Positions 1 through 56,963 of a stretch of 64,000 bases of DNA are shown here, in pieces. This DNA comes from an uncultured Clostridia bacterium (GTDB lineage: Bacteria > Bacillota > Clostridia > Christensenellales > UBA1242). A program made the translations under genes and the position numbers. Under the pieces are notes generated by a model that did no database searches, was not told where the DNA came from, and saw only the letters and a list, made by a program, of their open reading frames with translations. The stretch spans positions 24,576-88,575 of the forward strand of contig CANQOO010000005.1 in assembly GCA_947625515.1 (NCBI GenBank), read 5' to 3'. Within the stretch, counting starts at the first letter, position 1; each line of letters begins with the position of its first letter.

Positions 1-3000
1 CGTTTGGCAACGGAATGTCCGAAAGCTTGGTGGCTTTTTTATTGATGCGAATTATTGTGTCCACATTCGGCTTGCTCGCTTTTGAAATGGTGAAAAGAAG
101 TTCTTTGCTGCCCTTATAATCAGTTTTGAATGTGACAATGGCCTTGCCCTGCCCCGCAAGTTTGTTGTTTTGATATTGGACGTCATAATCGATGCCGACA
201 GAAAGCGTCAGCCCGCCATCCTTTGCGATAACTTTTGGCGTCTTGACAGTTCCGTCATATACAAAAGTTTGTGTTTCAAGGGTGATGCTCAGCAGTGAGG
301 CATCCTTTTGTGCCACCTTGATGATTGTGATTTCCACTCTATAATTGATGTAGTTTTTCGTGTCGAAATAAACTGCAAACGCTTTGGTTGACTCAGCGAC
401 AATTTCTGTGTTCGGATTTTCCCACTTCCAGCCGCCATTAAGCTCAACCAGTTGCAAAGTTTTAATTTTCCTTCCCACCGTCATTGTTTGCGGCGGCATT
501 TGCGGAGGATTGTTTGCCTTCGCGATTGTGAATGAGGCATATGCCTCGGCGGAATTATAGTTTTGCGACGGCTCAATCATTGCCTTTATCCAATAAGAGC
601 CGGCATCTGTTGGCATTTCGGATGTATAGTCGCCATTTCGCGAGGTTGAATAGGTGAATGAAATTGTCGCATCTTCTTTCTTGTTCTGCACTTGTGGGCT
701 TGGAGCATTCTCACCATAGGTCCAATCGCCCATCCACACGCCAAAGCCGTCCCTATCCGCTTTGGAAATGGTATATTTCAAATATACATTTCCGCAAAAG
801 TTGCCAAAGAAGGAAATTTTCACTTGCACCCTGCCAGCATTTGTCCTGTCGCCGATATATTCAATCGAAAAATTGCTAATTGCTGCATTTTGGTGGGTGA
901 TTGTCAGGTTCTGCTCCGTCTGGCTGCCGTTATACACAAAATCTCGAAGCCCGGACACATTGATGTCATTCAGCCCAAGTTGCTTTGCACGAATGGTGAA
1001 AAATTGAGTCTTGCTGCCAGTCGAACGCCCATCCACAGAGGCAATCTCAATCTCCGCCCGCTCTGATGCGGATATGTTGTTTGAGCAAGATACACGATAG
1101 CAATTCTCTGGGACAACAAAGGCGTTGAAATACACCACAATTTTTGGCACAATCGCTTCGCCAGAATATGTGTAAGTGCCTTCCACGCGGATTTCGCATT
1201 TTTCAAGGTCATAAATCTTTGGCAAATCTGTGCTGAAAACCGCGATAAAATCCGCATCCCCCTTCAAAAGAACGCTGCCCAAGACAATTTGCGTGTCATA
1301 TTGCCAGCCCAAGAAGCCCTCTTCGTCAAGTTGAAGCAAATTGACGCTCTGACCATAAACGCCATAGCCAACGCTGAAAACCGCATCACGGACGATATAT
1401 CTGTAAACAAAACAACCTTCATAAATTGCCACAAGGCGTGTCTGTTTTTCAAGCACAAAAGTTTGCCCTGCGTCATAAATTTTGTCGCCATCCCTATATG
1501 CCACAACTTTGTTTTGAGAATTGTCGATGGTTGGAAGATAAACCTCATACGCATACGCGTAATAATTCACAAATTTTTCATTTTTATAAAAAATTTCCAA
1601 AGAAAGTTTGTCTTTAATCGTGACGTTAAACTCGCTGTCCTTATTAATGACAATTTTGTCGCCCGTTTGATATTTTCTTCCACTCAGTCGCTCTTCATAT
1701 TCAACATATTGATTTTCCAGCAAATTATATTCATGCTGCTCCGTGCCAAATTCAAACTCATGGCTCTTAATTTCGCACTCAAAATTTGTTTTGTTATCAT
1801 AGAATTTAAGCCGATATAGGATTTTGCTGACAAAAATGCCACCAACATCAAATTTAAGCATGTAATCCGCGTTTATCTCAATTTTTTCTAAGACGTCCTG
1901 TGTGAAATTTCCTTCAAGTTTGATGCTTCTGACGTCATCAAAATCATCAAAACGAACAGAAATGTTGTTCACTTTTTGCGAAAGCGTCAAATTGTCAATG
2001 TTGCTAATGTTCACGCAAGGCTCTTCAATTTGCGTGAATGTGCAATTTTCAAGTCTAACTTTTCCACCCGCACAGATGATGCCATCCCCTTTTAAATCAA
2101 TACAATTTTCAAAACTGCAATTGGAAAGTTCAACATCCATTCCAGGTGCGTAGATAACGCCTGCCAAAAATTTTGTTCGCATGTTTCGAAAAACGACATT
2201 TTCGGCAGTGAATTTTGCACTCGCTCCAAAAATTAACGGATTTGTTGTCTGCATCACATTCCCGTCAAAAATGATTTTTGCATTAGTTTTCCCCTTAATT
2301 GTCAGTTCGCTTTGACACTGCAAAAAGGTTTGGTTTGTATCAATGCAAATATCGTTTTGAATGGACGAGTCAATTTCAATCGTCACATTTTTAAGCAAAT
2401 AAATATATTCCAGCTTGCAGTCTGCCAAGAGAAAAATCGTCTGCCCATTTGTGGCCCTTTCAAGGGCTTCATGAATTGAGTTAAAATATTGCTCTTCAAT
2501 CCTGCAAACACTTGGGCTTTGCAGGGAAACATCCGAAAACTCCTGACTTGGCTCACTTTGATTGAAAAATCTGTTGATTGCCACAACTTTATATATCGGG
2601 TCAGAAGAATAGTAATTTTCGTCCACAAACGAAGAGCCATATGTGAAGCCGGCAAGTTTCCACACCCCGCCAACTTTGGAATATATCTCATAGCAAAGAT
2701 GATTTTCATCCCGCATGCCCTGAATGTAAATCGTTCGCTTGCTATTGGACTTTATAATTTTTGTGATTGATGCTGCTCCCTTGTATGCCCTGTCGGCATC
2801 CGGCACGTTTTGGTGGCTTAATGCAAAATCATACTGCGTGCCGTCAGCATACCAAAAGTGGTCAAATTTTTTTGAAATTTTTCCTGCCTGCCTTGCCTGT
2901 TCCATCAAGGACTTAAACTTTTCTGAAGAAGTGCTGTAAACAAATCTGTGGCTCCACTCTCCCGGGCTTTTGCCATAATAAAATCCCCAACGTTCATAAT

Positions 3001-4693
3001 AATCCGAAAGGTCAACCTGCGTTGCAATGGAAGAATAATAGACATATTTCTCTTCCATGCTCAGTTCCGATTCAATTGTGCCGCGGAAGTAGTTGTTAAA
3101 TCTTGCCCAAAAGCCAGGGAAGACCGCTTCCAAATCCCACCAAATCAGATAGTTGTGGTCATATATTGTCGGATATTTATCCTTTGTGTACATAATCTGC
3201 CCGTCATCATATGCTTTGTGGTCAAGTTTATAATCATTTGAAAGTGCTTTAAGTGTCTTTGCAAACGGCTGATACTGCTCATGATGCGGCATCCCAACAA
3301 TGTTGAAATATGCCATCGCGGCAGTGAAATTGTTTGTCGTTTCGTTTATCTTTCGCGGATCGTTGTCCAGGGCATGACCAAGTTCATGTCCAATTCCAAA
3401 AAGCAAATGTTCTGACTGTCCGTGGTCCTTGATTGGATTTTTTGCATTATAGAAATTGGCGAACCAATAATGCTCATAATACCACCCAATGTGATAAGAA
3501 TATGAATAAGCCCCCGAGCCTTCATAATATGTCATGTATCTGAAATTTATCTTCACATAATCATTTCGCGGGTCATATGCCACATCAAGATTGGAAGATT
3601 CGCTTGTGGGAATTCCGTTAAACTCAAAAAGCGTTGTAAAATAATTCCCCCAAAGATTGAGATTTTCACTTGGAGTGATGACATTGTTGTTAAAATAGAC
3701 GTCATAAAGGGAAGAAGAAGTTGTGGAAATTATTGCGTGGTCGGTGACAAGTTCTGCCATATTAAGCAAATTGTTTTCAGCCCGCTGCGTTTCATATTCT
3801 TCAAGAAAGTTCAAAAATTCTTGCTCATTTCCGCCCTTTCGGAAAATTGGATAAAAGTCCCCACCTTCAATATAGACACTAATTTTGCCCTGCTCTTCTG
3901 GCAAATATGGATTGCACAAATACACCGCCCCGCCACGGATTTCATCCTTCGCAATATATCCAAGGCCAAAAGTTGGGAATGTCAGTTTGTTCCAGCCTTT
4001 TTTAAGTTGGACTTTGTTATACCAGTGCAAATAATAGCCGTGATTTTGTGAAAACATAATTGAGGGCAGATTGTTGGTCGTTTCATCTGCCTCGACAAAA
4101 ACATTAAAAGCAAAGTCCGGCATGCCATAAATGCCCGTCAAAATAATTTCGCTTGACTTCCAAATGCATTTTAAGGCAGTTTGTGAATATTGTGCAATGT
4201 CCCCCACTTGGTCAATTTTGTTGTCATTTTCAAACTCCGTGGAGAACTCTCTTTTTGAGGTGTATCTCACATTCCCGTCAAGCACCATAGTTGCACGCTC
4301 ATACACCTGTTCAGAAATTTTGTTTTCTTGTTTTAATTGGTCAAGAATCGTCCTGTCAGCATATTCTTTGTTCAAACTTGTTTGAGTGTAATCTTCAAAA
4401 ATGTCGTCTTCCGCCAAGACGCTTTCGGCCTCGTTAGCCGACGCAACATTTGCCACCTCGCGTTCCGACAAGATGTTCACTATGCCATTTCCCGCCAGAA
4501 CATTTTCCACTTCGCCTTCCGACAAAAAATTTTGAGCCTCTTTTGCCGCAAAGATACTTTCGGACTTACATGCACTCGTCTCGCCTACGGCAACATATGC
4601 GGGCTGACTTTGAAATGCAAAAAAAATACCTGTCCCCGCAAAAAGCAGCAGGCAGCTTATGTAAAATAAAAATTTAGATTTTTTATTCTCCAT
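1..4693 (-). CDS. Large secreted/surface M60-like (enhancin-type) zinc metallopeptidase followed by Ig-like/MBG-type repeat modules; the C-terminus runs off the left window edge
   Basis: Absent from the ORF track because it is open at the window edge. Manual translation from ATG (complement 4693-4691) gives MENKKSKFLFYISCLLLFAGTGIFF (signal/anchor). HELGH is at complement 3374-3388, followed by ...INETTNNF. Then come repeated modules with F.YDG....P / Y.NN..AG.A pattern. No stop occurs down to position 1. Confidence 0.8.
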   Translation of the reverse strand, partial: MENKKSKFLFYISCLLLFAGTGIFFAFQSQPAYVAVGETSACKSESIFAAKEAQNFLSEGEVENVLAGNGIVNILSEREVANVASANEAESVLAEDDIFEDYTQTSLNKEYADRTILDQLKQENKISEQVYERATMVLDGNVRYTSKREFSTEFENDNKIDQVGDIAQYSQTALKCIWKSSEIILTGIYGMPDFAFNVFVEADETTNNLPSIMFSQNHGYYLHWYNKVQLKKGWNKLTFPTFGLGYIAKDEIRGGAVYLCNPYLPEEQGKISVYIEGGDFYPIFRKGGNEQEFLNFLEEYETQRAENNLLNMAELVTDHAIISTTSSSLYDVYFNNNVITPSENLNLWGNYFTTLFEFNGIPTSESSNLDVAYDPRNDYVKINFRYMTYYEGSGAYSYSYHIGWYYEHYWFANFYNAKNPIKDHGQSEHLLFGIGHELGHALDNDPRKINETTNNFTAAMAYFNIVGMPHHEQYQPFAKTLKALSNDYKLDHKAYDDGQIMYTKDKYPTIYDHNYLIWWDLEAVFPGFWARFNNYFRGTIESELSMEEKYVYYSSIATQVDLSDYYERWGFYYGKSPGEWSHRFVYSTSSEKFKSLMEQARQAGKISKKFDHFWYADGTQYDFALSHQNVPDADRAYKGAASITKIIKSNSKRTIYIQGMRDENHLCYEIYSKVGGVWKLAGFTYGSSFVDENYYSSDPIYKVVAINRFFNQSEPSQEFSDVSLQSPSVCRIEEQYFNSIHEALERATNGQTIFLLADCKLEYIYLLKNVTIEIDSSIQNDICIDTNQTFLQCQSELTIKGKTNAKIIFDGNVMQTTNPLIFGASAKFTAENVVFRNMRTKFLAGVIYAPGMDVELSNCSFENCIDLKGDGIICAGGKVRLENCTFTQIEEPCVNISNIDNLTLSQKVNNISVRFDDFDDVRSIKLEGNFTQDVLEKIEINADYMLKFDVGGIFVSKILYRLKFYDNKTNFECEIKSHEFEFGTEQHEYNLLENQYVEYEERLSGRKYQTGDKIVINKDSEFNVTIKDKLSLEIFYKNEKFVNYYAYAYEVYLPTIDNSQNKVVAYRDGDKIYDAGQTFVLEKQTRLVAIYEGCFVYRYIVRDAVFSVGYGVYGQSVNLLQLDEEGFLGWQYDTQIVLGSVLLKGDADFIAVFSTDLPKIYDLEKCEIRVEGTYTYSGEAIVPKIVVYFNAFVVPENCYRVSCSNNISASERAEIEIASVDGRSTGSKTQFFTIRAKQLGLNDINVSGLRDFVYNGSQTEQNLTITHQNAAISNFSIEYIGDRTNAGRVQVKISFFGNFCGNVYLKYTISKADRDGFGVWMGDWTYGENAPSPQVQNKKEDATISFTYSTSRNGDYTSEMPTDAGSYWIKAMIEPSQNYNSAEAYASFTIAKANNPPQMPPQTMTVGRKIKTLQLVELNGGWKWENPNTEIVAESTKAFAVYFDTKNYINYRVEITIIKVAQKDASLLSITLETQTFVYDGTVKTPKVIAKDGGLTLSVGIDYDVQYQNNKLAGQGKAIVTFKTDYKGSKELLFTISKASKPNVDTIIRINKKATKLSDIPLPN

Positions 4694-4772
4694 ATGTCTT
4701 ATTATAACAAAAATAACCTAATAAAAACAAACAACATCACAAGTTCACAACATATTTTCAGCACTTTTAAGC

Positions 4773-4804
4773 CACATTCTATATGGCCGTTACTGCCAAA
4801 AAGT
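4773..4804 (-). promoter_or_regulatory. Conserved 32-bp intergenic motif, copy A (contains TGGC-N7-GCCA palindrome), about 80 nt upstream of the M60-like gene start
   Basis: cacattctatatggccgttactgccaaaaagt is identical to 5575-5606. Confidence 0.4.
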
Positions 4805-4856
4805 TGATTTTCGCATAAAAATAGTTGCTATTTCATTTTAAAACTAAAATCTTTAT

Positions 4857-5546
4857 TTATTCCATAATTTCATTATATATTAAATTAAAATTGTTTTCAA
4901 GTTGATAAGCGGTCAAAATCAAGTGCTCAGCTATATTCGTTCGCAAATAATCTCTTTTAATATATGGTTGTCCCAGTCTTACCCTATCAAGAGCATCGGC
5001 ATCCTTTAAAATTTGATAAATTTGTCTACAACGTTTTTTCTCTTGTATGCAATATTTTTGCTCGACATCTTGATAATTCAAATCTGACAAACTATGAGCC
5101 GCGATTACGCATTTCAAAATTTTCAAATCATCACTTTTTATTGGCAATCTTAGTTTGTCTATAAGATTTGCCCCTAACGCTCCATGACTTAGGTCTTCAA
5201 GATCATTTCTTCTCCCTATATCATGATACATAGCTGCATACAAAACTAATTTTGTATCTTCTTCACTCAATTTCAATTCATCGGAGATGTAAACAGCAAA
5301 AAGAGAAACTCGAAAATTGTGCATTTTGCCATGTTTGTCACTTTTATACAAGAAATCATCCTTAACATTTTTAAATAGATTTTTAAACAACTCAAAGTGC
5401 TTTGATTCGAAAATTTTATTAACAAATTCAGTTAAATTAATTTGTTTTATATGTGCATTCTTCAATTCATCTTTCTGCAATAAATAAAAATTGTAAGTAT
5501 GATGACTTTCATCGACATCCTTAAAAGGCTTTGTTAATGCTGCCAT
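4857..5546 (-). CDS. HD-domain phosphohydrolase family protein
   Basis: 229-aa ORF with the motif ...AAMYHDIGRRND... and a downstream H/D pattern. AGGAGGG RBS upstream. AT-rich by eye. Confidence 0.7.
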   Translation of the reverse strand: MAALTKPFKDVDESHHTYNFYLLQKDELKNAHIKQINLTEFVNKIFESKHFELFKNLFKNVKDDFLYKSDKHGKMHNFRVSLFAVYISDELKLSEEDTKLVLYAAMYHDIGRRNDLEDLSHGALGANLIDKLRLPIKSDDLKILKCVIAAHSLSDLNYQDVEQKYCIQEKKRCRQIYQILKDADALDRVRLGQPYIKRDYLRTNIAEHLILTAYQLENNFNLIYNEIME

Positions 5547-5579
5547 TAATACCCTCCTAAATTAAGACAATTTACACAT

Positions 5580-5609
5580 TCTATATGGCCGTTACTGCCA
5601 AAAAGTCAA
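5580..5609 (-). promoter_or_regulatory. Candidate sigma-70 promoter for the HD gene, embedded in 32-bp motif copy B (5575-5606)
   Basis: Minus-strand reading is TTGACT-18 nt-TATAGA(AT). The TGGC-N7-GCCA palindrome lies in the spacer. Confidence 0.45.
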
Positions 5610-5611
5610 TT

Positions 5612-6175
5612 TTACAAATTGTAGGTTTTAATTTTCTCAATTATTTTTTTATAAATAGGTATCATATATTTTTCTTCTGACAAACTGAGAAGTTCATCAA
5701 AATAAAGCCATTTCACCCCTTTATTTTCTTCTGGAGCTTCTTGAAGGGCTTCATTTTCGTCTGCTTCAAACAAATATGTAACATTGAGATGTATGTGAGC
5801 CGGAATGTATTTCCCTCTCTTAAAATGACCCAAAACAGGTATGCTTTCAATTGAAATAGGTTCTTTTGATAAAAGTCTATAATTGTGCAAAGAGGTTTCT
5901 TCTTCAAGTTCTTTTTTTGCAACAAACAAGGCGTCATCATCACCATCCACATGGCCACCTGTCCAAGTCCAAGAATCAAAAATAATATGATATGTTGACA
6001 ACACTTTTGTTCTATCTTTGTTTACAACGAATGCCGATGCACACAAATGTGCCATATCATTATCGCGTGTTAGAATTTGTTCTTTATTTTCACAATCAAT
6101 AAAAAATATTTTATCTCTTTCTTCCTGCTCATTAAATGGTTTATATTTTTTCACCATTTCAATTATTTTACTCAT
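5612..6175 (-). CDS. NUDIX hydrolase
   Basis: 187-aa ORF with Nudix box GGHVDGDDDALFVAKKELEEETSL (GX5EX7REUXEEXGU pattern). Confidence 0.85.
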   Translation of the reverse strand: MSKIIEMVKKYKPFNEQEERDKIFFIDCENKEQILTRDNDMAHLCASAFVVNKDRTKVLSTYHIIFDSWTWTGGHVDGDDDALFVAKKELEEETSLHNYRLLSKEPISIESIPVLGHFKRGKYIPAHIHLNVTYLFEADENEALQEAPEENKGVKWLYFDELLSLSEEKYMIPIYKKIIEKIKTYNL

Positions 6176-6250
6176 ATCCCATCCCTAAAAAAGACAAATC
6201 ACTTGTTTTATATGGAGCTACTGGGCAAACTCAAGCCCGACCTGCTGATA

Positions 6251-6648
6251 ACAAGCCGAGCAATCAAACCGCTTGCGGAATTTGAAGTTGCGAGGCACAG
6301 TTATATCTTTAATATAACAAGCCGAGCAATCAAACCGCTTGCGGAATTTGAAGTTGCGAGGTGCAGTTATATCGTTAATATAACAAGCCGAGCAATCAAA
6401 TCGCTTGCGGGATTTGGAATTGCGAGGCACAGTTATATCGTTAATATAACAAGCCGAGCAATCAAACCGCTTGCGGGATTTGGAATTGCGAGGCACAGTT
6501 ATATCTTTAATATAACAAGCCGAGCAATCAAAACCGCTTGCTGGATTTGAAGTTGCGAGGCACAGTTATATCTTTAATATAACAAGCCGAGCAATCAAAC
6601 CGCTTGCGGAATTTGAAGTTGCGAGGCAAAGTTATGTTTCAATATAAC
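6251..6648. repeat. Tandem array of six copies of a 66-bp unit (copy 5 is 67 bp, copy 6 is degenerate at its end)
   Basis: The unit is acaagccgagcaatcaaaccgcttgcggaatttgaagttgcgaggcacagttatatctttaatata. It starts at 6251, 6317, 6383, 6449, 6515 and 6582. Each unit holds a long imperfect hairpin plus a GTTATAT/ATATAAC hairpin. Confidence 0.9.
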
Positions 6649-6734
6649 GAAGGAAGTGTTCTCCCCGCCCGCAATCAACTGCTCTTGCCACCTATTCCCC
6701 TTTGTTTTTCGGTTGTTTACAATAGGCAAAGAAA

Positions 6735-6785
6735 AATAGGTGTATAGGTTTTCACTCCTATACACCTATTTTACACCTAAATCTC
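6735..6785. terminator. Strong bidirectional intrinsic terminator (about 14-bp perfect stem)
   Basis: aataggtgtatagg-ttttcact-cctatacacctatt is flanked by an A-run and a T-run. It lies just downstream of the DUF1848 stop on the minus strand and downstream of the repeat array on the plus strand. Confidence 0.75.
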
Positions 6786-6845
6786 AAATTTTCCAAATGT
6801 TTTAAGCTTTCAAACTGCCTAATTCGTTCTATGGTTTTGCAAAAC

Positions 6846-7784
6846 TTATTTATACTCAAATTCGAGTTCGGTTTTGCGGTCATAGATTTCACCAGAAAGT
6901 TCATCAAGCATACTTTTTGGAGTGCCTTTGCGAGCATAACAATAGTTGCAGCCGTGGCGGCAGGTATCGTAGCGGCCAATGTCCACAGAAGGCATACAGC
7001 CGCAAAATTTTCTTTGTCCGTCAAGTTTATTGTTCTTTCGTTTGACGGTCAAATTTTGTGCTGCGAATTTTTCTGTGAGCAGTTTCTCAAAAATCTCGCC
7101 GTCAATGCACTTGCTCGGCACAATGTCGTAGGCACTCCAATCGCCGCTTTCGGCACAAGCCTCAATTTGAATGCCGTTTTGTTTTGCAATCTTTGAAAAT
7201 GCGGACAAAATTTGGTGCTTTTGCGTGAGATTAGGTGCCCAAACACTTTTCGAGCAACCCGAATAACTTTCAATCACAAAACTGATTTTGCAGTGTTTCG
7301 TGTAGCCCTTTAAACTTTCGCACAGCTTTGCAAAATGTTCAATGTGCCACTCAACATTAATCCCGTCCGCCAGCAAAATTGGGTCATATCGCCAAATCAC
7401 CGGACAAAATTTGGAGAGTTCTTTAAAACTATCAATTCGCTCTTCCAGTGGTGGCAAATTGGCTTCAATTTTCGCTGGATAATGATTGAGTGTGTAGAGA
7501 AAATAATATTTTATGTCCCCAAGTTCTCCGAGTCGGCTCATCATCGGTCGCGGATTTTTCGTCCAAAAGACGATGCCTTCCAAATTGCCGCTCATCTCAA
7601 CTTTTTTGTTGCCAAGCATATCTTCTTCAATGCTTTCAATTTTGATTGGCTTCAACTCTACCCGTGCAATCTTTTGCTGATTGATAGGATTTGGCACAAG
7701 CACAAAGCCGGCTTTGAGCCTCTCAAAAAACCAATCGCTATAAAATGCCGGCACATCCGTTCGCCTCGAAACGCTTAAAATCAT
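6846..7784 (-). CDS. DUF1848-like protein with a C-terminal Cys cluster (Fe-S type)
   Basis: The likely start is MILSVSRRTDVPAFYSDWF at 7784, where the ATGA overlaps the upstream stop. The C-terminal motif is CRHGCNYCYA. The track ORF extends to 7847, but the overlap start fits better. Confidence 0.65.
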   Translation of the reverse strand: MILSVSRRTDVPAFYSDWFFERLKAGFVLVPNPINQQKIARVELKPIKIESIEEDMLGNKKVEMSGNLEGIVFWTKNPRPMMSRLGELGDIKYYFLYTLNHYPAKIEANLPPLEERIDSFKELSKFCPVIWRYDPILLADGINVEWHIEHFAKLCESLKGYTKHCKISFVIESYSGCSKSVWAPNLTQKHQILSAFSKIAKQNGIQIEACAESGDWSAYDIVPSKCIDGEIFEKLLTEKFAAQNLTVKRKNNKLDGQRKFCGCMPSVDIGRYDTCRHGCNYCYARKGTPKSMLDELSGEIYDRKTELEFEYK

Positions 7785-8131
7785 AGTTCGTCCACCTTTA
7801 TGCCCAAATTGTCTTCCAGCCACTTTGCCACAATTCTGCGATGACAAAAAGTTGTGCCGTTTTCTATATCGGCATATTTTTCATAACAAAGCAAAACCGC
7901 ATTGTCACCAAGCTCATCAAAAACCTGCTGCGGATTTAACCTTGACAGCACTTTTTCATAATAAATTTTTTCATACAATTTTTCATCTTTGATTTTAATA
8001 ATCTCTGCCGGCGGTGCGAGTTTTTGATATGTATCTCCGTCCCAAAACTTTGCAAAGCGTGCAATTGAGACAAATCGATATCCTTTGTCTTTCGGATAAC
8101 TTCTCACTTTTCCAAAATATCCCGTTTTCAT
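7781..8131 (-). CDS. DUF488-like small protein
   Basis: 116 aa, with ...VLLCYEK......CHRRIVAKWLE, the characteristic C-terminal pattern as I recall it. ATGA overlaps at both ends. Confidence 0.55.
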   Translation of the reverse strand: MKTGYFGKVRSYPKDKGYRFVSIARFAKFWDGDTYQKLAPPAEIIKIKDEKLYEKIYYEKVLSRLNPQQVFDELGDNAVLLCYEKYADIENGTTFCHRRIVAKWLEDNLGIKVDEL

Positions 8132-8964
8132 ATCAAATCTCCATCAAACAGGCTCGCCTGTTTCCTTTCATCGAGCACACGCACTATGAACTGATCCGGA
8201 TTTTTCTCTTCTGGCAAAAGTTCAACATTTGGCGCAAGTTTTCTAAGGCAAAACTTGTAATAAACTTGCTTGCCGGTCGGTCTAAGCAAATCCACACAAT
8301 CTTGCAAATATTTTGCCCAGTCCTGCCACTTGTCCTCACTTTTATAGTTGTTGATTTTCCCAATTTTGTAGTGGTCAACGCAGTCAAGTTCCAGCGTTTT
8401 GCGAATAAGTGCCAAACTTTCGTCAGGCTCAATTGTTGGCTCAAAACTTGCAAAAGTCTTGATGCCATTATCATGCAAAATTTTCAAAGTTTCAAGCCTC
8501 TCGCTTGGAAGTGCTGCAAACGGCTCCCAATATCTGCTTTTTTCTTCGTCTAAAAATGTCAGCGTTGTTCCAACAGTTATGCGATCTCCAAAAGTCTTAA
8601 AAACATCCAAATCTCGCAGCATTTTCTTTCCGCCTTTGGACAGTACTGCCACCGGCACGCGATATGCACTCAGCATTTTCAACACTTCACGCGTTGTGGC
8701 ACTGTCATCTGCGTTGTCACAATAAACATCTCCGACAAAAGACAAAAGCACCTGCTCTTTATAAACATTTTTTTGCAGGTCTTTTTCCAAATATTTCAAA
8801 ATATCCTTTCGTGGCTCCGGTTTTCCAAAATATGTCGCACTTGATTTTTGCAACGTGTGCGGTGCATAACAATATCTGCATCTATGGCTGCACCCGATGT
8901 AAATGTTCAGCGCAAACGGACTATATTCTCTCGCCATGCCACTAGGCCGATAAATCACACTCAT
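8128..8964 (-). CDS. Radical SAM enzyme, SplB/COG1533-like (so-called DNA repair photolyase type)
   Basis: MSVIYRPSGMAREYSPFALNIYIGCSHRCRYCYAP carries a CxxxCxxC motif. The stop overlaps the DUF488 start. Confidence 0.75.
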   Translation of the reverse strand: MSVIYRPSGMAREYSPFALNIYIGCSHRCRYCYAPHTLQKSSATYFGKPEPRKDILKYLEKDLQKNVYKEQVLLSFVGDVYCDNADDSATTREVLKMLSAYRVPVAVLSKGGKKMLRDLDVFKTFGDRITVGTTLTFLDEEKSRYWEPFAALPSERLETLKILHDNGIKTFASFEPTIEPDESLALIRKTLELDCVDHYKIGKINNYKSEDKWQDWAKYLQDCVDLLRPTGKQVYYKFCLRKLAPNVELLPEEKNPDQFIVRVLDERKQASLFDGDLI

Positions 8965-9055
8965 GCAAAAATTATAGCACAAATGCAAAAAATTTGAAAT
9001 TATTTGACAATAAAATATCCATAATGTTTGTCAAAATGGTCAATATACGAATTTT

Positions 9056-9547
9056 TTAAATCCTCCTTTCAATGATCTGTGAAACGCCAAGCATAATCAG
9101 CACCACGCAAGCCACAGATTTTCCAGCAATACAAAATTTTTCGTTATTTTTGTTAATAATCCCCAATTTTTCCAAAAATGAGAGATGGTGATACACCTTT
9201 CCAGTTGTTGGAAAATTCAATATTTCCATAATTTCTTTCGCCGTTAAAGGTTTTTTAAGCAAAAGTTTCACAATGTCAATTCTTTCTTCTGTAGAAAAAG
9301 CGTCAATCACATGTGCCACTTCATTTGAATTCATTTTCAAAATTTTGCCAATGGAAACATCCCCCGCAAAAGTTGAGCCAATTTTTCTGTCGGAAGATTC
9401 ATATTTTCCTCGATAAGTCAACATCCCCACATTCATGTCTTTTGCCTCTTGCATGCTTTTTTCGCGATGACCACCCTTCGACTCAAGTTTTTCAAGACGA
9501 CTTTCAAGTTCTTTCAGTCTTTCTTCAAATTCAATTTGTTTTTTCAT
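9056..9547 (-). CDS. ArsR-type winged-HTH transcriptional regulator with N-terminal coiled coil and C-terminal hydrophobic segment
   Basis: ...ERIDIVKLLLKKPLTAKEIMEILNFPTTGKVYHHLSFLEKLGII.... The GGGAGGGG RBS precedes MKKQIEF. Confidence 0.6.
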   Translation of the reverse strand: MKKQIEFEERLKELESRLEKLESKGGHREKSMQEAKDMNVGMLTYRGKYESSDRKIGSTFAGDVSIGKILKMNSNEVAHVIDAFSTEERIDIVKLLLKKPLTAKEIMEILNFPTTGKVYHHLSFLEKLGIINKNNEKFCIAGKSVACVVLIMLGVSQIIERRI

Positions 9548-9810
9548 TTCCCCTCCCATATTTTAAATTACAACTTGTGCTATGGTTTTATGTAATTTCG
9601 TAAAATAATATACCACATGAAGCCTAACTTGTCAACACTTTTTTGCAGAAATTTTTATAATAAATTTTGTGTATGAAAATAGTTATATAAAAATAAAAAA
9701 AATGCCTATAACTAGGCAAGTTTTTGGCTGTTATCGCCAAAAAGTCGATTTTGCTGCCGAGCCGAAGGCGAACGCCAAGCCGCAGGCTTATTGCTCCAGA
9801 GCGGAACGCC

Positions 9811-9989: not shown

Positions 9990-10065
9990 TGGAGCTGATG
10001 GCGGGACTCGGACCCGCGACCTGTCGATTACGAATCGACTGCTCTACCAACTGAGCCACATCAGC
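9990..10065 (-). tRNA. tRNA-Thr (anticodon CGT), CCA encoded
   Basis: Manual cloverleaf: acceptor GCTGATG/CATCAGC, anticodon arm GTCGA-TTCGTAA-TCGAC, T arm GCGGG/CCCGC. Confidence 0.9.
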
Positions 10066-10396
10066 ATAAGGTGCAAAAGCACCAAAGTTTTTGTGATTTG
10101 TTTTTGTTTGATTTCTATTTATGAATTTGTTTTTTTGATTTTATTTACAAACCAATCGCTATAACAATGAGCCACATCAGCACGAACGCAAAAATTATAT
10201 TCCTTTTTGCGTCAAAAGTCAAGCGGTTTTCAGGTTTGCAGTGAGGAGATTTGTGTGTTTTTTATGTCTCATTTCATTTTACACATTTAATTTCATTCTG
10301 TCGGCTACACTTTGCCATGTTCTCTTTCATTCCCGCTTTCAACTCATCATTCCAACATCATCAATTCAACTTCATTCATCAACTTCGCTTTCTCTT

Positions 10397-27399: not shown

Positions 27400-27485
<86 letters not shown>

Positions 27486-27509: not shown

Positions 27510-27556
27510 CGCACAAGATTTTAAGTCCCATGCGTCTGCCATTCCGCCACGCCGGC
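27510..27556 (-). pseudogene. Truncated tRNA-Leu(TAA) 5' portion (acceptor 5' strand through anticodon loop; no T arm)
   Basis: GCCGGCGTGGCGGAATGGCAGACGCATGGGACTTAAAATCTTGTGCG matches the intact tRNA from the D arm to the anticodon loop, then diverges. Confidence 0.75.
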
Positions 27557-45227: not shown

Positions 45228-45627
45228 TGGTGGAGACGGAGGGAATTGAACCCTCGTCCGAAAACAAAACAAAACACTTTTCTACATGTTTAGTTTATGA
45301 TTGAATCTCGCTGCCAAATCGCCCATAAACAGGTTTTGGAAGCCAGCCTTTAAGATTTTTTGCGGCTGCAAAGGCCAATCACCACAAAATTTTTGCCTTG
45401 TTTGATGCCCTGACCCTCAAGCGGCAACTTTGAGGCAGGACAGATTGAAAATTCTCAATCAAGTCGTCGTTTCAGTTAAGCAGCGTAAGCGGCGTTAAAA
45501 GGAACAACATTGTTTTCATTGTTTGCGTTTATTCGCTTGCATCAGTTTAAGGTGTCGGTGCCCCACCACATGCTTTACATATTTTGTTTAAATCCCCGTC
45601 GAAACCAAATCGTCCCCGCAAACGACA
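45228..45627 (-). ncRNA. ssrA: tmRNA (SsrA)
   Basis: 5' GGGGACGATTTGGTTTCGACGGGGATT and 3' GGACGAGGGTTCAATTCCCTCCGTCTCCACCA. The candidate tag ORF is ...GCA AAC AAT GAA ... GCT GCT TAA. Lies downstream of smpB. Confidence 0.9.
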
Positions 45628-56797: not shown

Positions 56798-56836
56798 GCT
56801 GATGTGGCTCAGTCGGTAGAGCGTCGCCTTGGTAAG
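56798..56836 (+). pseudogene. Truncated tRNA-Thr(GGT) 5' half, ending just after the anticodon loop
   Basis: GCTGATGTGGCTCAGTCGGTAGAGCGTCGCCTTGGTAAG is followed by unrelated sequence. Its acceptor and D arm differ from the intact copy 52 nt downstream. Confidence 0.8.
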
Positions 56837-56888: not shown

Positions 56889-56963
56889 GCTGGTGTGGCT
56901 TAGTGGGAAAGCGCGGCCTTGGTAAGGCCGAGAGAGCGGGTCCGATCCCCGCCACCAGCTCCA
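56889..56963 (+). tRNA. tRNA-Thr (anticodon GGT), CCA encoded
   Basis: The full cloverleaf was checked by hand: acceptor GCTGGTG/CACCAGC, anticodon arm CGGCC-TTGGTAA-GGCCG, T arm GCGGG/CCCGC. Confidence 0.9.

Follow-up and report, generated by a model that had tools for sequence, protein, structure and literature searches.

A six-copy 66-bp tandem array, probably a lineage-restricted minisatellite, in a tRNA-Thr attachment-site scar of an uncultured Clostridia bacterium

Mycobacterial MIRU-type repeats, tandem units of 40–100 bp, are an example of bacterial minisatellites, and the sponge RNAs CsrB and RsmZ are conserved genes with promoters that carry their binding motifs in loops. Islands integrated in tRNA genes (tDNA) have a displaced tRNA fragment at the island end (Islander framework, PMC4383910), and in integrons the R boxes of attC sites, RYYYAAC ... 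GTTRRRY, pair with each other, with an unpaired central spacer and extrahelical bases (PMC5027507). The present study concerns a tandem array of six 66-bp units in a 64,000-nucleotide stretch of contig CANQOO010000005.1 (assembly GCA_947625515.1) from an uncultured Clostridia bacterium; the whole of this stretch is referred to below as the window. The sequence family of the unit is undescribed, and a bacterial intergenic tandem repeat is ordinary as a kind of object; what is unusual is that this one lies in the crossover region of a tRNA attachment-site scar. A brief literature search gave no precedent for a tandem repeat at a tRNA attachment (att) site, only the general island framework. A preliminary description of the array preferred an independent noncoding RNA (ncRNA); the results presented below make it probable that the array is a young, lineage-restricted, non-coding minisatellite at the crossover point of an old att site.

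The array and the scar that holds it

Tandem Repeats Finder placed the array at 6248–6648 of the window, with a period of 66, 6.1 copies, 93% matches and a score of 674, which makes it by far the strongest repeat of the window. Its parts are as follows.

6253–6648, no strand assigned: tandem array of six head-to-tail units (repeat finding, alignment, covariance model matches of 88–98 bits)
6253–6318, 6319–6384 and 6385–6450: array units 1–3
6451–6516, 6517–6583 (67 nt) and 6584–6648 (65 nt, diverged tail): array units 4–6
6255–6296, no strand assigned: hairpin 1 of unit 1, recurring every 66 nt (minimum-free-energy fold, pair counts)
6300–6318, no strand assigned: hairpin 2 of unit 1, recurring every 66 nt (perfect 7-bp palindrome GTTATAT-CTTTA-ATATAAC)

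Unit 5 carries one extra A, which the preliminary description had not mentioned, and in unit 6 the second hairpin is diverged; the ATAAC at 6248–6252, just before the array, repeats the unit end. The unit alignment bears out the earlier statement that whole units are repeated head to tail without unique spacers, and not as repeat–spacer units. A 26-nt core of the unit was found five times at ≤3 mismatches, vs no occurrence in shuffles, and nowhere else in the 64 kb. Copies 1–6, with every variant base, were recovered in an independent metagenome assembly (L005 and L002, sample ERZ27249386), so the six-copy array reported earlier is real and not an assembly artefact; two further metagenome contigs terminate within it. 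In unit 5, an insertion of 1 nt interrupts the open frames that run through the array, and the unit of the array found in a sister species (locus L038, see below) is 70 nt long, which is not a multiple of three; the array is therefore non-coding, and a search of 5.8 billion predicted proteins with the translated repeat (both open frames) gave no relative.

A genomic island has its boundary here, marked by a tRNA-Thr fragment that the array interrupts; this context had been missed in the preliminary description. The features that define this boundary are listed here.

6213–6252, minus strand: displaced, partly decayed 3′ half of tRNA-Thr(CGT) (alignment to the tRNA and to orthologous halves)
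6649–6732, minus strand: conserved terminal island arm, 84 nt (93–96.5% identity in L030, L031 and L034–L038)
6733–6772, no strand assigned: bidirectional intrinsic terminator (16-nt arms, 8-nt loop, flanked by an A-run and, on the opposite side, a T-run)
9990–10065, minus strand: intact tRNA-Thr(CGT), which bounds the island remnant at its opposite end

Read along the minus strand, the intact tRNA-Thr is followed by 3.3 kb with the island cargo, the terminator, the arm (6732–6649), the array and the displaced tRNA half (6252–6213), which spans the anticodon loop to CCA (GTTATCAGCAGGTCGGGCTTGAGTTTGCCCAGTAGCTCCA). The island remnant, about 3.8 kb, starts at the intact tRNA-Thr and has the array at its far end, at the anticodon-loop position of the displaced half, between this half and the island arm. 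The 190 bp to the right of the array (6644–6838) are 93% conserved in other contigs, where they run straight into left-flank sequence. The uninterrupted junction reads, on the minus strand, ...GAGAACACTTCC TTCGTAA TCAGC AGGTC GGCGG TTCGAGT CCGCC CATCAGC T CCA; from the anticodon loop on, it is the 3′ half of tRNA-Thr(CGT), with 38–39 of 45 nt identical to the intact gene (10065–9990), and in relatives BLAST aligns the orthologous halves with just tRNA positions 32–76, at 84–87% identity. An intact tRNA at one end and a displaced 3′ half at the other indicate, therefore, that the island was integrated in the tRNA gene by a tyrosine integrase. No tyrosine integrase is encoded between 6650 and 9990 of the window, and the enzyme is present in the complete relatives L035 and L032; the window copy is thus an island remnant that has lost its integrase and terminase. 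From species to species, the T-stems of the displaced halves show compensatory changes (GGCGG/CCGCC, GCGGG/CCCGC and GTGGG/CCCAC), which, next to an arm that is 93–96% constant, fits host-derived fragments beside a shared mobile arm.

A scan of GTDB genomes with a 22-nt arm sequence returned five loci, all from metagenome-assembled genomes of uncultured Clostridia from rabbit gut. Four species (L030/L037, L031/L036, L034 and L035) have an empty junction, GATTAC|GAAGG on the plus strand, and these sites read ...CACTTCCTTCGTAATCAGCAGG..., with the island arm joined directly to the tRNA half and no units. In L038 this very junction holds a diverged unit of 70 nt in two copies (AAGCCGAGAAATCAAACCGCTTGCGGGTTTGAAGATGCGAGGCGCAGTTATATTGATTTTTCAAAATAAC). 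Copy number at the locus is, therefore, six in the window, at least two in L038 and zero in L030/L037, L031, L034, L035 and L036. L038 is also closest to the window in the host-side flank (89%) and has the GATAAC variant of the junction in common with it; a single insertion in a common ancestor would be the simplest account of the distribution. On the minus strand, every unit of the window begins with GTTAT, as does the tRNA half after the last unit, and the L038 array begins with GTAAT, the original anticodon-loop sequence. These junctions place the array in the overlap region of the former core site, the halves of which are parted by 396 bp. The two arrays have evolved in concert: units resemble others of their own array more closely than those of the other species, and each array is uniform for C9/A9, T36/A36, the AA/G bulge and the form of hairpin 2.

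Beyond this locus, exact gapped unit patterns gave no match in GTDB representative genomes (the pattern would miss the L038 variant) or in IMG/VR, and an exact-pattern scan of JGI metagenomes gave 14 single matches, all of which were unrelated chance matches on inspection. A blastn search (distant mode) of 6205–6740 against phage and plasmid collections revealed no match. Covariance model R1, based on eight units and run over the window and 19 related loci (184.5 kb), recovered the arrays only; the occurrence of the unit in other genomes, considered in the preliminary description, thus extends to the diverged array of the sister species L038 and, among these loci, to no unit beyond the arrays.

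Fold, variation and probable origin of the unit

The two hairpins per unit proposed earlier proved to be the minimum-free-energy fold of every unit (RNAfold): GCC-GA-GCAA-TCAAA-CCG/CGG-TTTGA-TTGC-GA-GGC, followed by GTTATAT-CTTTA-ATATAAC. Hairpin 1 consists, in order, of the GCC/GGC helix, a tandem G.A 2x2 loop, the GCAA/TTGC helix and an AG bulge, and its upper part comprises TCAAA/TTTGA, an AA bulge, CCG/CGG and a CTTG tip. Hairpin 2 of L038 is a 10-bp palindrome, GTTATATTGA-TTTT-TCAAaATAAC, and so stays a palindrome though its sequence and length differ from those of the window unit. The z-score of the unit fold is about −3 vs dinucleotide shuffles, and the minus-strand mirror-image fold has nearly the same z-score. 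The plus strand is predicted to be more stable in seven of eight units, by 0.5–4.6 kcal/mol; for the whole array the calculated energies are −147.5 (plus) vs −134.8 kcal/mol (minus), a difference of 12.7 kcal/mol, so that the asymmetry of the modelled array folds is real but modest.

Pair counting covered 22 proposed pairs in eight aligned units from two species. Covariation in the stems is missing: 0 of the 22 pairs changed on both sides, with 11 invariant, five varying one-sidedly and six departing by mismatches only, and 12 of the 176 pair-by-sequence comparisons form no standard base pair. Four of the five one-sided variable pairs contain genuine G.U wobbles, and the fifth reflects a misalignment of hairpin 2 of L038. 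The variant positions listed in the preliminary description exist. As had been claimed, the one-sided changes, namely C44U (unit 2), A33G (units 3 and 4), C17U (unit 3) and perhaps a further one in unit 6, form G.U wobbles if the plus strand is read but would be A.C mismatches if the minus strand is. This strand bias amounts to three to four independent transitions, and the binomial p is ~0.06–0.12, because there are only so many of them and each has a chance of 1/2 of going in the plus-favouring direction. The L038 unit differs by C9A and T36A, uncompensated transversions that both strike the GCAA/TTGC helix, and its predicted fold loses this helix.

The units of the window and L038 are 91% identical, with several indels; identity in the flanks is 89% for the leader and tRNA half, 96.5% for the arm, 91% for the terminator region and 87% for the DUF1848 gene. 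The unit is thus not better conserved than its flanks (91% vs 89–96% in non-coding sequence) and its conservation is neutral-like. An Rfam cmscan of 6253–6648, at the gathering threshold and at E ≤ 10, revealed no family, only noise.

A course of events compatible with these results can be proposed. The small integrative island sits at tRNA-Thr(CGT), with the intact tRNA at one end and the displaced 3′ half at the other. A single insertion, before the two lineages with arrays had parted, would have placed one segment of 61–66 nt between two copies of the anticodon-loop pentamer GT(A/T)AT, at an att site that was defunct or soon to be so. The unit would subsequently have been multiplied head to tail by replication slippage or unequal recombination and homogenised within each array; two strong hairpins and the perfect homology from unit to unit would favour such an expansion. 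The insertion would split the former core site of the integrase and thereby make it unusable for the remnant island. A cellular function of the array need not be assumed, and any effect would be incidental, e.g., on distance or topology upstream of the Nudix–HD promoter. This account comes close to the "selfish minisatellite" that the preliminary description had named as an alternative, and with which the empty sites, the concerted evolution and the non-coding status agree.

Several points speak against a functionless minisatellite of single origin. The search for dispersed copies covered 64 kb in the genome with the six-copy array and 4.3 kb in that of the sister species. Derivation of the unit from the island arm or the tRNA was considered and rejected, since local alignments of the unit with either are no better than shuffles (p = 0.13–0.84). 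Variation of copy number within the species comes down to one contig, L001, where copy 1 is joined to copy 6 (two copies) between flanks that are 100% identical; this two-copy form may be an assembler collapse, because an 82-nt stretch is common to the 1–2 and 5–6 junctions and coverage is only 3x. Finally, the palindrome of hairpin 2, kept in both species despite indels, could, together with the plus-strand folding, reflect selection on a single-stranded form.

Alternative explanations

The array might be a cis-acting DNA or leader element for the Nudix–HD genes that lie downstream of it on the host side of the scar, which we regard as unlikely.

5612–6175, minus strand: Nudix gene, host side of the scar
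4857–5546, minus strand: HD gene, host side of the scar
6207–6234, minus strand: candidate Nudix–HD promoter TTGAGT-16 nt-TATAAA, read from the sequence

Such an element could consist of six palindromic operators bound by a dimeric regulator, with hairpin 2 recurring every 66 bp, or about six helical turns; it could also be a copy-number-dependent promoter spacer, or a structured minus-strand leader if the DUF1848 terminator is read through. The geometry is suggestive: 78 bp separate the end of the array from the Nudix start codon downstream of it, and the candidate promoter follows the array directly on the minus strand. This promoter coincides in part with the T-loop and 3′ end of the tRNA fragment, and it falls short of the rule of the promoter scan because its −10 element has A as the sixth base. 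Hairpin 2 is palindromic in both species, and an ArsR-type regulator is encoded 2.4 kb away. However, the same leader and tRNA fragment precede other genes without any unit in L037, and expression downstream thus does not depend on the array; hairpin 2 also has one sequence in the window and another in L038. Homologues of the Nudix gene (67–80% identity: 67–76% for the proteins, ~80% at the DNA level in L033) occur in different contexts without an array, and a conserved Nudix leader was accordingly rejected.

It is also unlikely that the unit is either an undescribed single-strand-folding recombination substrate captured at the anticodon-loop core or a sequence whose plus strand is expressed as a modular RNA. 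The first of these, a substrate for recombination or transposition that folds as a single strand and was inserted and multiplied by a recombinase, is quite unlikely when taken by itself. In its favour, the insertion falls precisely within the overlap region of a tyrosine-recombinase core site, GT(A/T)AT is present at both junctions, and the fold is strand-asymmetric, with G.T pairs and the tandem G.A on one strand only. One form of such a substrate would be a miniature element of the IS200/IS605 type inserting 3′ of TTAC, the classic IS608-type target (empty site GATTAC^GAAGG); the unit itself ends TAAC/TTAC, and new copies would therefore land head to tail. The two hairpins of the unit are, however, unlike each other, whereas IS200/IS605 ends share one hairpin type. 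In another form, the re-phased unit ATATAAC-AA-[imperfect hairpin, bulged bases]-ACA-GTTATAT resembles an integron attC site and has the attC features described in PMC5027507. Its R boxes match the attC consensus at 6/7 positions here but at 5/7 in L038, the "sites" are only 5 nt apart with no open reading frame between them, and any array of a hairpin plus a palindrome can be re-phased likewise. Neither an integron integrase nor a Y1 transposase was found among the proteins of the window and loci that were scanned, and there are no dispersed copies in 184 kb.

An independent structured ncRNA of about 550 nt on the plus strand, built of six two-hairpin modules (e.g., a protein sponge) and ending at the bidirectional terminator, was the reading preferred in the preliminary description; it gained no support and now appears distinctly improbable. 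The better folding of the plus strand in seven of eight units and the three to four one-sided changes that retain G.U on this strand only are in its favour, as is the terminator, which is real and bidirectional but lies at 6733–6772 with 16-nt arms, and not at 6735–6785 with a 14-bp stem. This terminator ends the DUF1848 operon and is kept at the empty sites of four species without the array, and so it is accounted for by the upstream operon and needs no plus-strand transcript. No plus-strand sigma-70-like promoter upstream of 6253 passes the scan, and the promoter-like TTGCGA-16-TAATAT within the unit matches at 8/12 positions and is not conserved in L038. The absence of compensatory change in all 22 pairs, the broken GCAA/TTGC helix of L038, the neutral-like conservation, the lack of an Rfam match and the absence of the array from the same locus in four related species likewise argue against such an RNA. 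What stands of the earlier interpretation is the whole-unit repetition, the two hairpins and the plus-strand G.U bias.

A protein-binding array belonging to the island, composed of additional arm-type sites for an integrase or excisionase, or of a pac-like site for a small terminase, is very improbable. The array does lie at the island end beside the core site, and complete relatives encode both an integrase and a Terminase_4 protein; yet L035 retains integrase and terminase and has no units, while the array-bearing copy of the window has lost both genes. To our knowledge, a 66-bp period is far longer than that of known arm-type or pac repeats.

A degenerate array of the CRISPR (clustered regularly interspaced short palindromic repeats) kind, with a 36-nt repeat and a 30-nt "spacer" that add up to 66, can practically be dismissed: its period is that of a typical repeat together with its spacer, and TTTGAAG closes the first 36 nt, but all "spacers" are one sequence, variation is spread over the whole unit, no cas protein adjoins (the neighbours give only a Csa3-like helix-turn-helix (HTH) match of the ArsR protein), and in L038 the unit measures 70 nt and its two copies are near-identical. 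A related CRISPR/Cas13-like idea was rejected as well, given the identical "spacers" and a 1576-aa neighbour with only a weak MBG-domain match and no PADLOC hit.

Island neighbourhood and comparison with known systems

The cargo of the island remnant comprises four genes.

6846–9559, minus strand: island cargo overall
9056–9559, minus strand: ArsR-type HTH protein
8128–8988, minus strand: radical SAM protein
7781–8131, minus strand: 116-aa protein
6846–7784, minus strand: DUF1848 protein

These genes and the Nudix and HD genes are all on the minus strand, as the preliminary description had stated for the flanking genes; housekeeping genes lie to the right of the intact tRNA-Thr. The complete element in L035 encodes a 456-aa tyrosine integrase, a Terminase_4 small subunit, two proteins of unknown function, the radical SAM protein and the 116-aa protein, and continues with DUF1848, a 138-aa protein, the terminator and arm, and the tRNA half, with an IS3 transposase on the host side. 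With its compact organisation (~5.8 kb; 144–5900 of CANQNH010000001.1), the element is similar in appearance to phage satellites or phage-inducible chromosomal islands. PADLOC matched the DUF1848 protein to the DRT-associated model RTasDUF1848 and the 116-aa protein to PDC-M45C; because of these matches, the cargo may represent a module for defence or DNA repair. For the ArsR-type HTH protein of the window, PADLOC gave matches to the models of Csa3 and CARF-associated regulators as well (E = 1.6e-9), with no cas genes seen nearby. Downstream of the HD gene, the minus strand encodes a 1576-aa protein (window <1–4693; complete in L002, 1642–6372), which has a weak MBG-domain match only and no match to a defence system, and is probably a large surface protein.

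The arm is 93–96.5% identical between species, vs 87–89% for the protein-coding genes of the island. It contains AGAGCAGTTGATT, which matches the D-stem/anticodon-stem of tRNA-Thr (13-nt block, p = 0.0055) and is followed by 23 extra nt and then by the anticodon-loop sequence; global alignments are ambiguous. The arm, in its 5′ part, may be a decayed tRNA 5′ half, or it may contain arm sites of an integrase or excisionase. In the L030 contig, pieces of the arm and terminator recur after other genes (4210–4247, 5271–5297 and 7800–7840), including after the DUF1848 stop codon, so that the genome carries this module, in whole or in part, more than once.

The window contains further tRNA fragments with a break at the anticodon loop, and scars of this kind are thus common here. 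A 34-nt copy (97%) of the tRNA-Leu 5′ half at 27517–27550, running from the anticodon loop in the direction of the 5′ end, is broken at this loop and lies 71 bp from tRNA-Leu(TAA) (27400–27485, minus strand). At 56798–56836, a tRNA-Thr-like 5′ half ends in the anticodon loop (…CCTTGGTAAG) and then diverges; it lies 50 nt before an intact tRNA-Thr(GGT) (56889–56963), its first 25 nt are 96% identical to tRNA-Thr(CGT), and it suggests that recombination at anticodon loops has occurred repeatedly in this genome. At 10168–10182, the 5′-terminal 15 nt of tRNA-Thr(CGT) recur without mismatch, 116 bp upstream of the gene itself. A direct repeat of two copies (27614–27673/27742–27801, and also 27580–27596/27723–27739), with a period of ~128–143 bp and 85% identity, is situated between tRNA-Leu and tRNA-Cys; it contains TTTGATTGCTC, an 11–12-mer of the minus strand of the array unit, a coincidence that is probably due to chance. 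The window also contains a transfer-messenger RNA gene (45228–45617, minus strand; tag peptide ANNENNVVPFNAAYAA).

As a minisatellite, the array would be of little importance alone, with potential use as a strain-typing marker for this uncultured rabbit-gut Clostridia lineage. It disrupts short-read assembly, as two of three metagenome assemblies end within it, and its location illustrates one way in which an integrase-less island remnant can become fixed, i.e., by a tandem repeat that splits the core. Should a recombinase acting on folded single strands have made the repeats, this would be a new att-site behaviour in Firmicutes, and the array would be a record of repeated site-specific events and not of replication slippage.

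Among the systems named at the outset, CsrB and RsmZ share with the array the repetition of stem-loop modules in one non-coding stretch; they differ from it in that no promoter, covariation or conservation across related species was found for the array. Integron attC sites and clusters of attC sites lacking integron integrases (CALIN; PMC5027507) are similar in their length of about 60 nt, their paired terminal boxes ending in AAC and beginning with GTT, their internal unpaired spacer, their bulged bases and their strand-asymmetric folding; here, in a Clostridia host, there are no cassettes, no integron integrase was seen and the consensus is imperfect, so that the likeness is a resemblance only. 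The correspondence to tDNA islands (PMC4383910) comprises an intact tRNA-Thr with a 3′ fragment in the same orientation that starts in the anticodon loop, a tyrosine integrase in complete relatives, and a conserved arm beside diverging host-side fragments; scars of these islands are normally a clean junction, whereas here a 396-bp tandem array stands at the crossover point and the island copy of the window is without an integrase. With minisatellites and variable-number tandem repeat loci the array has in common non-coding head-to-tail units of tens of bp between genes of the same orientation, homogenisation within the locus, and presence or absence and copy number that vary among close relatives; it differs from them in its two strong hairpins per unit, in a unit without dispersed family members in the available sequence, and in its location, which is a tRNA-fragment scar and not an operon spacer.

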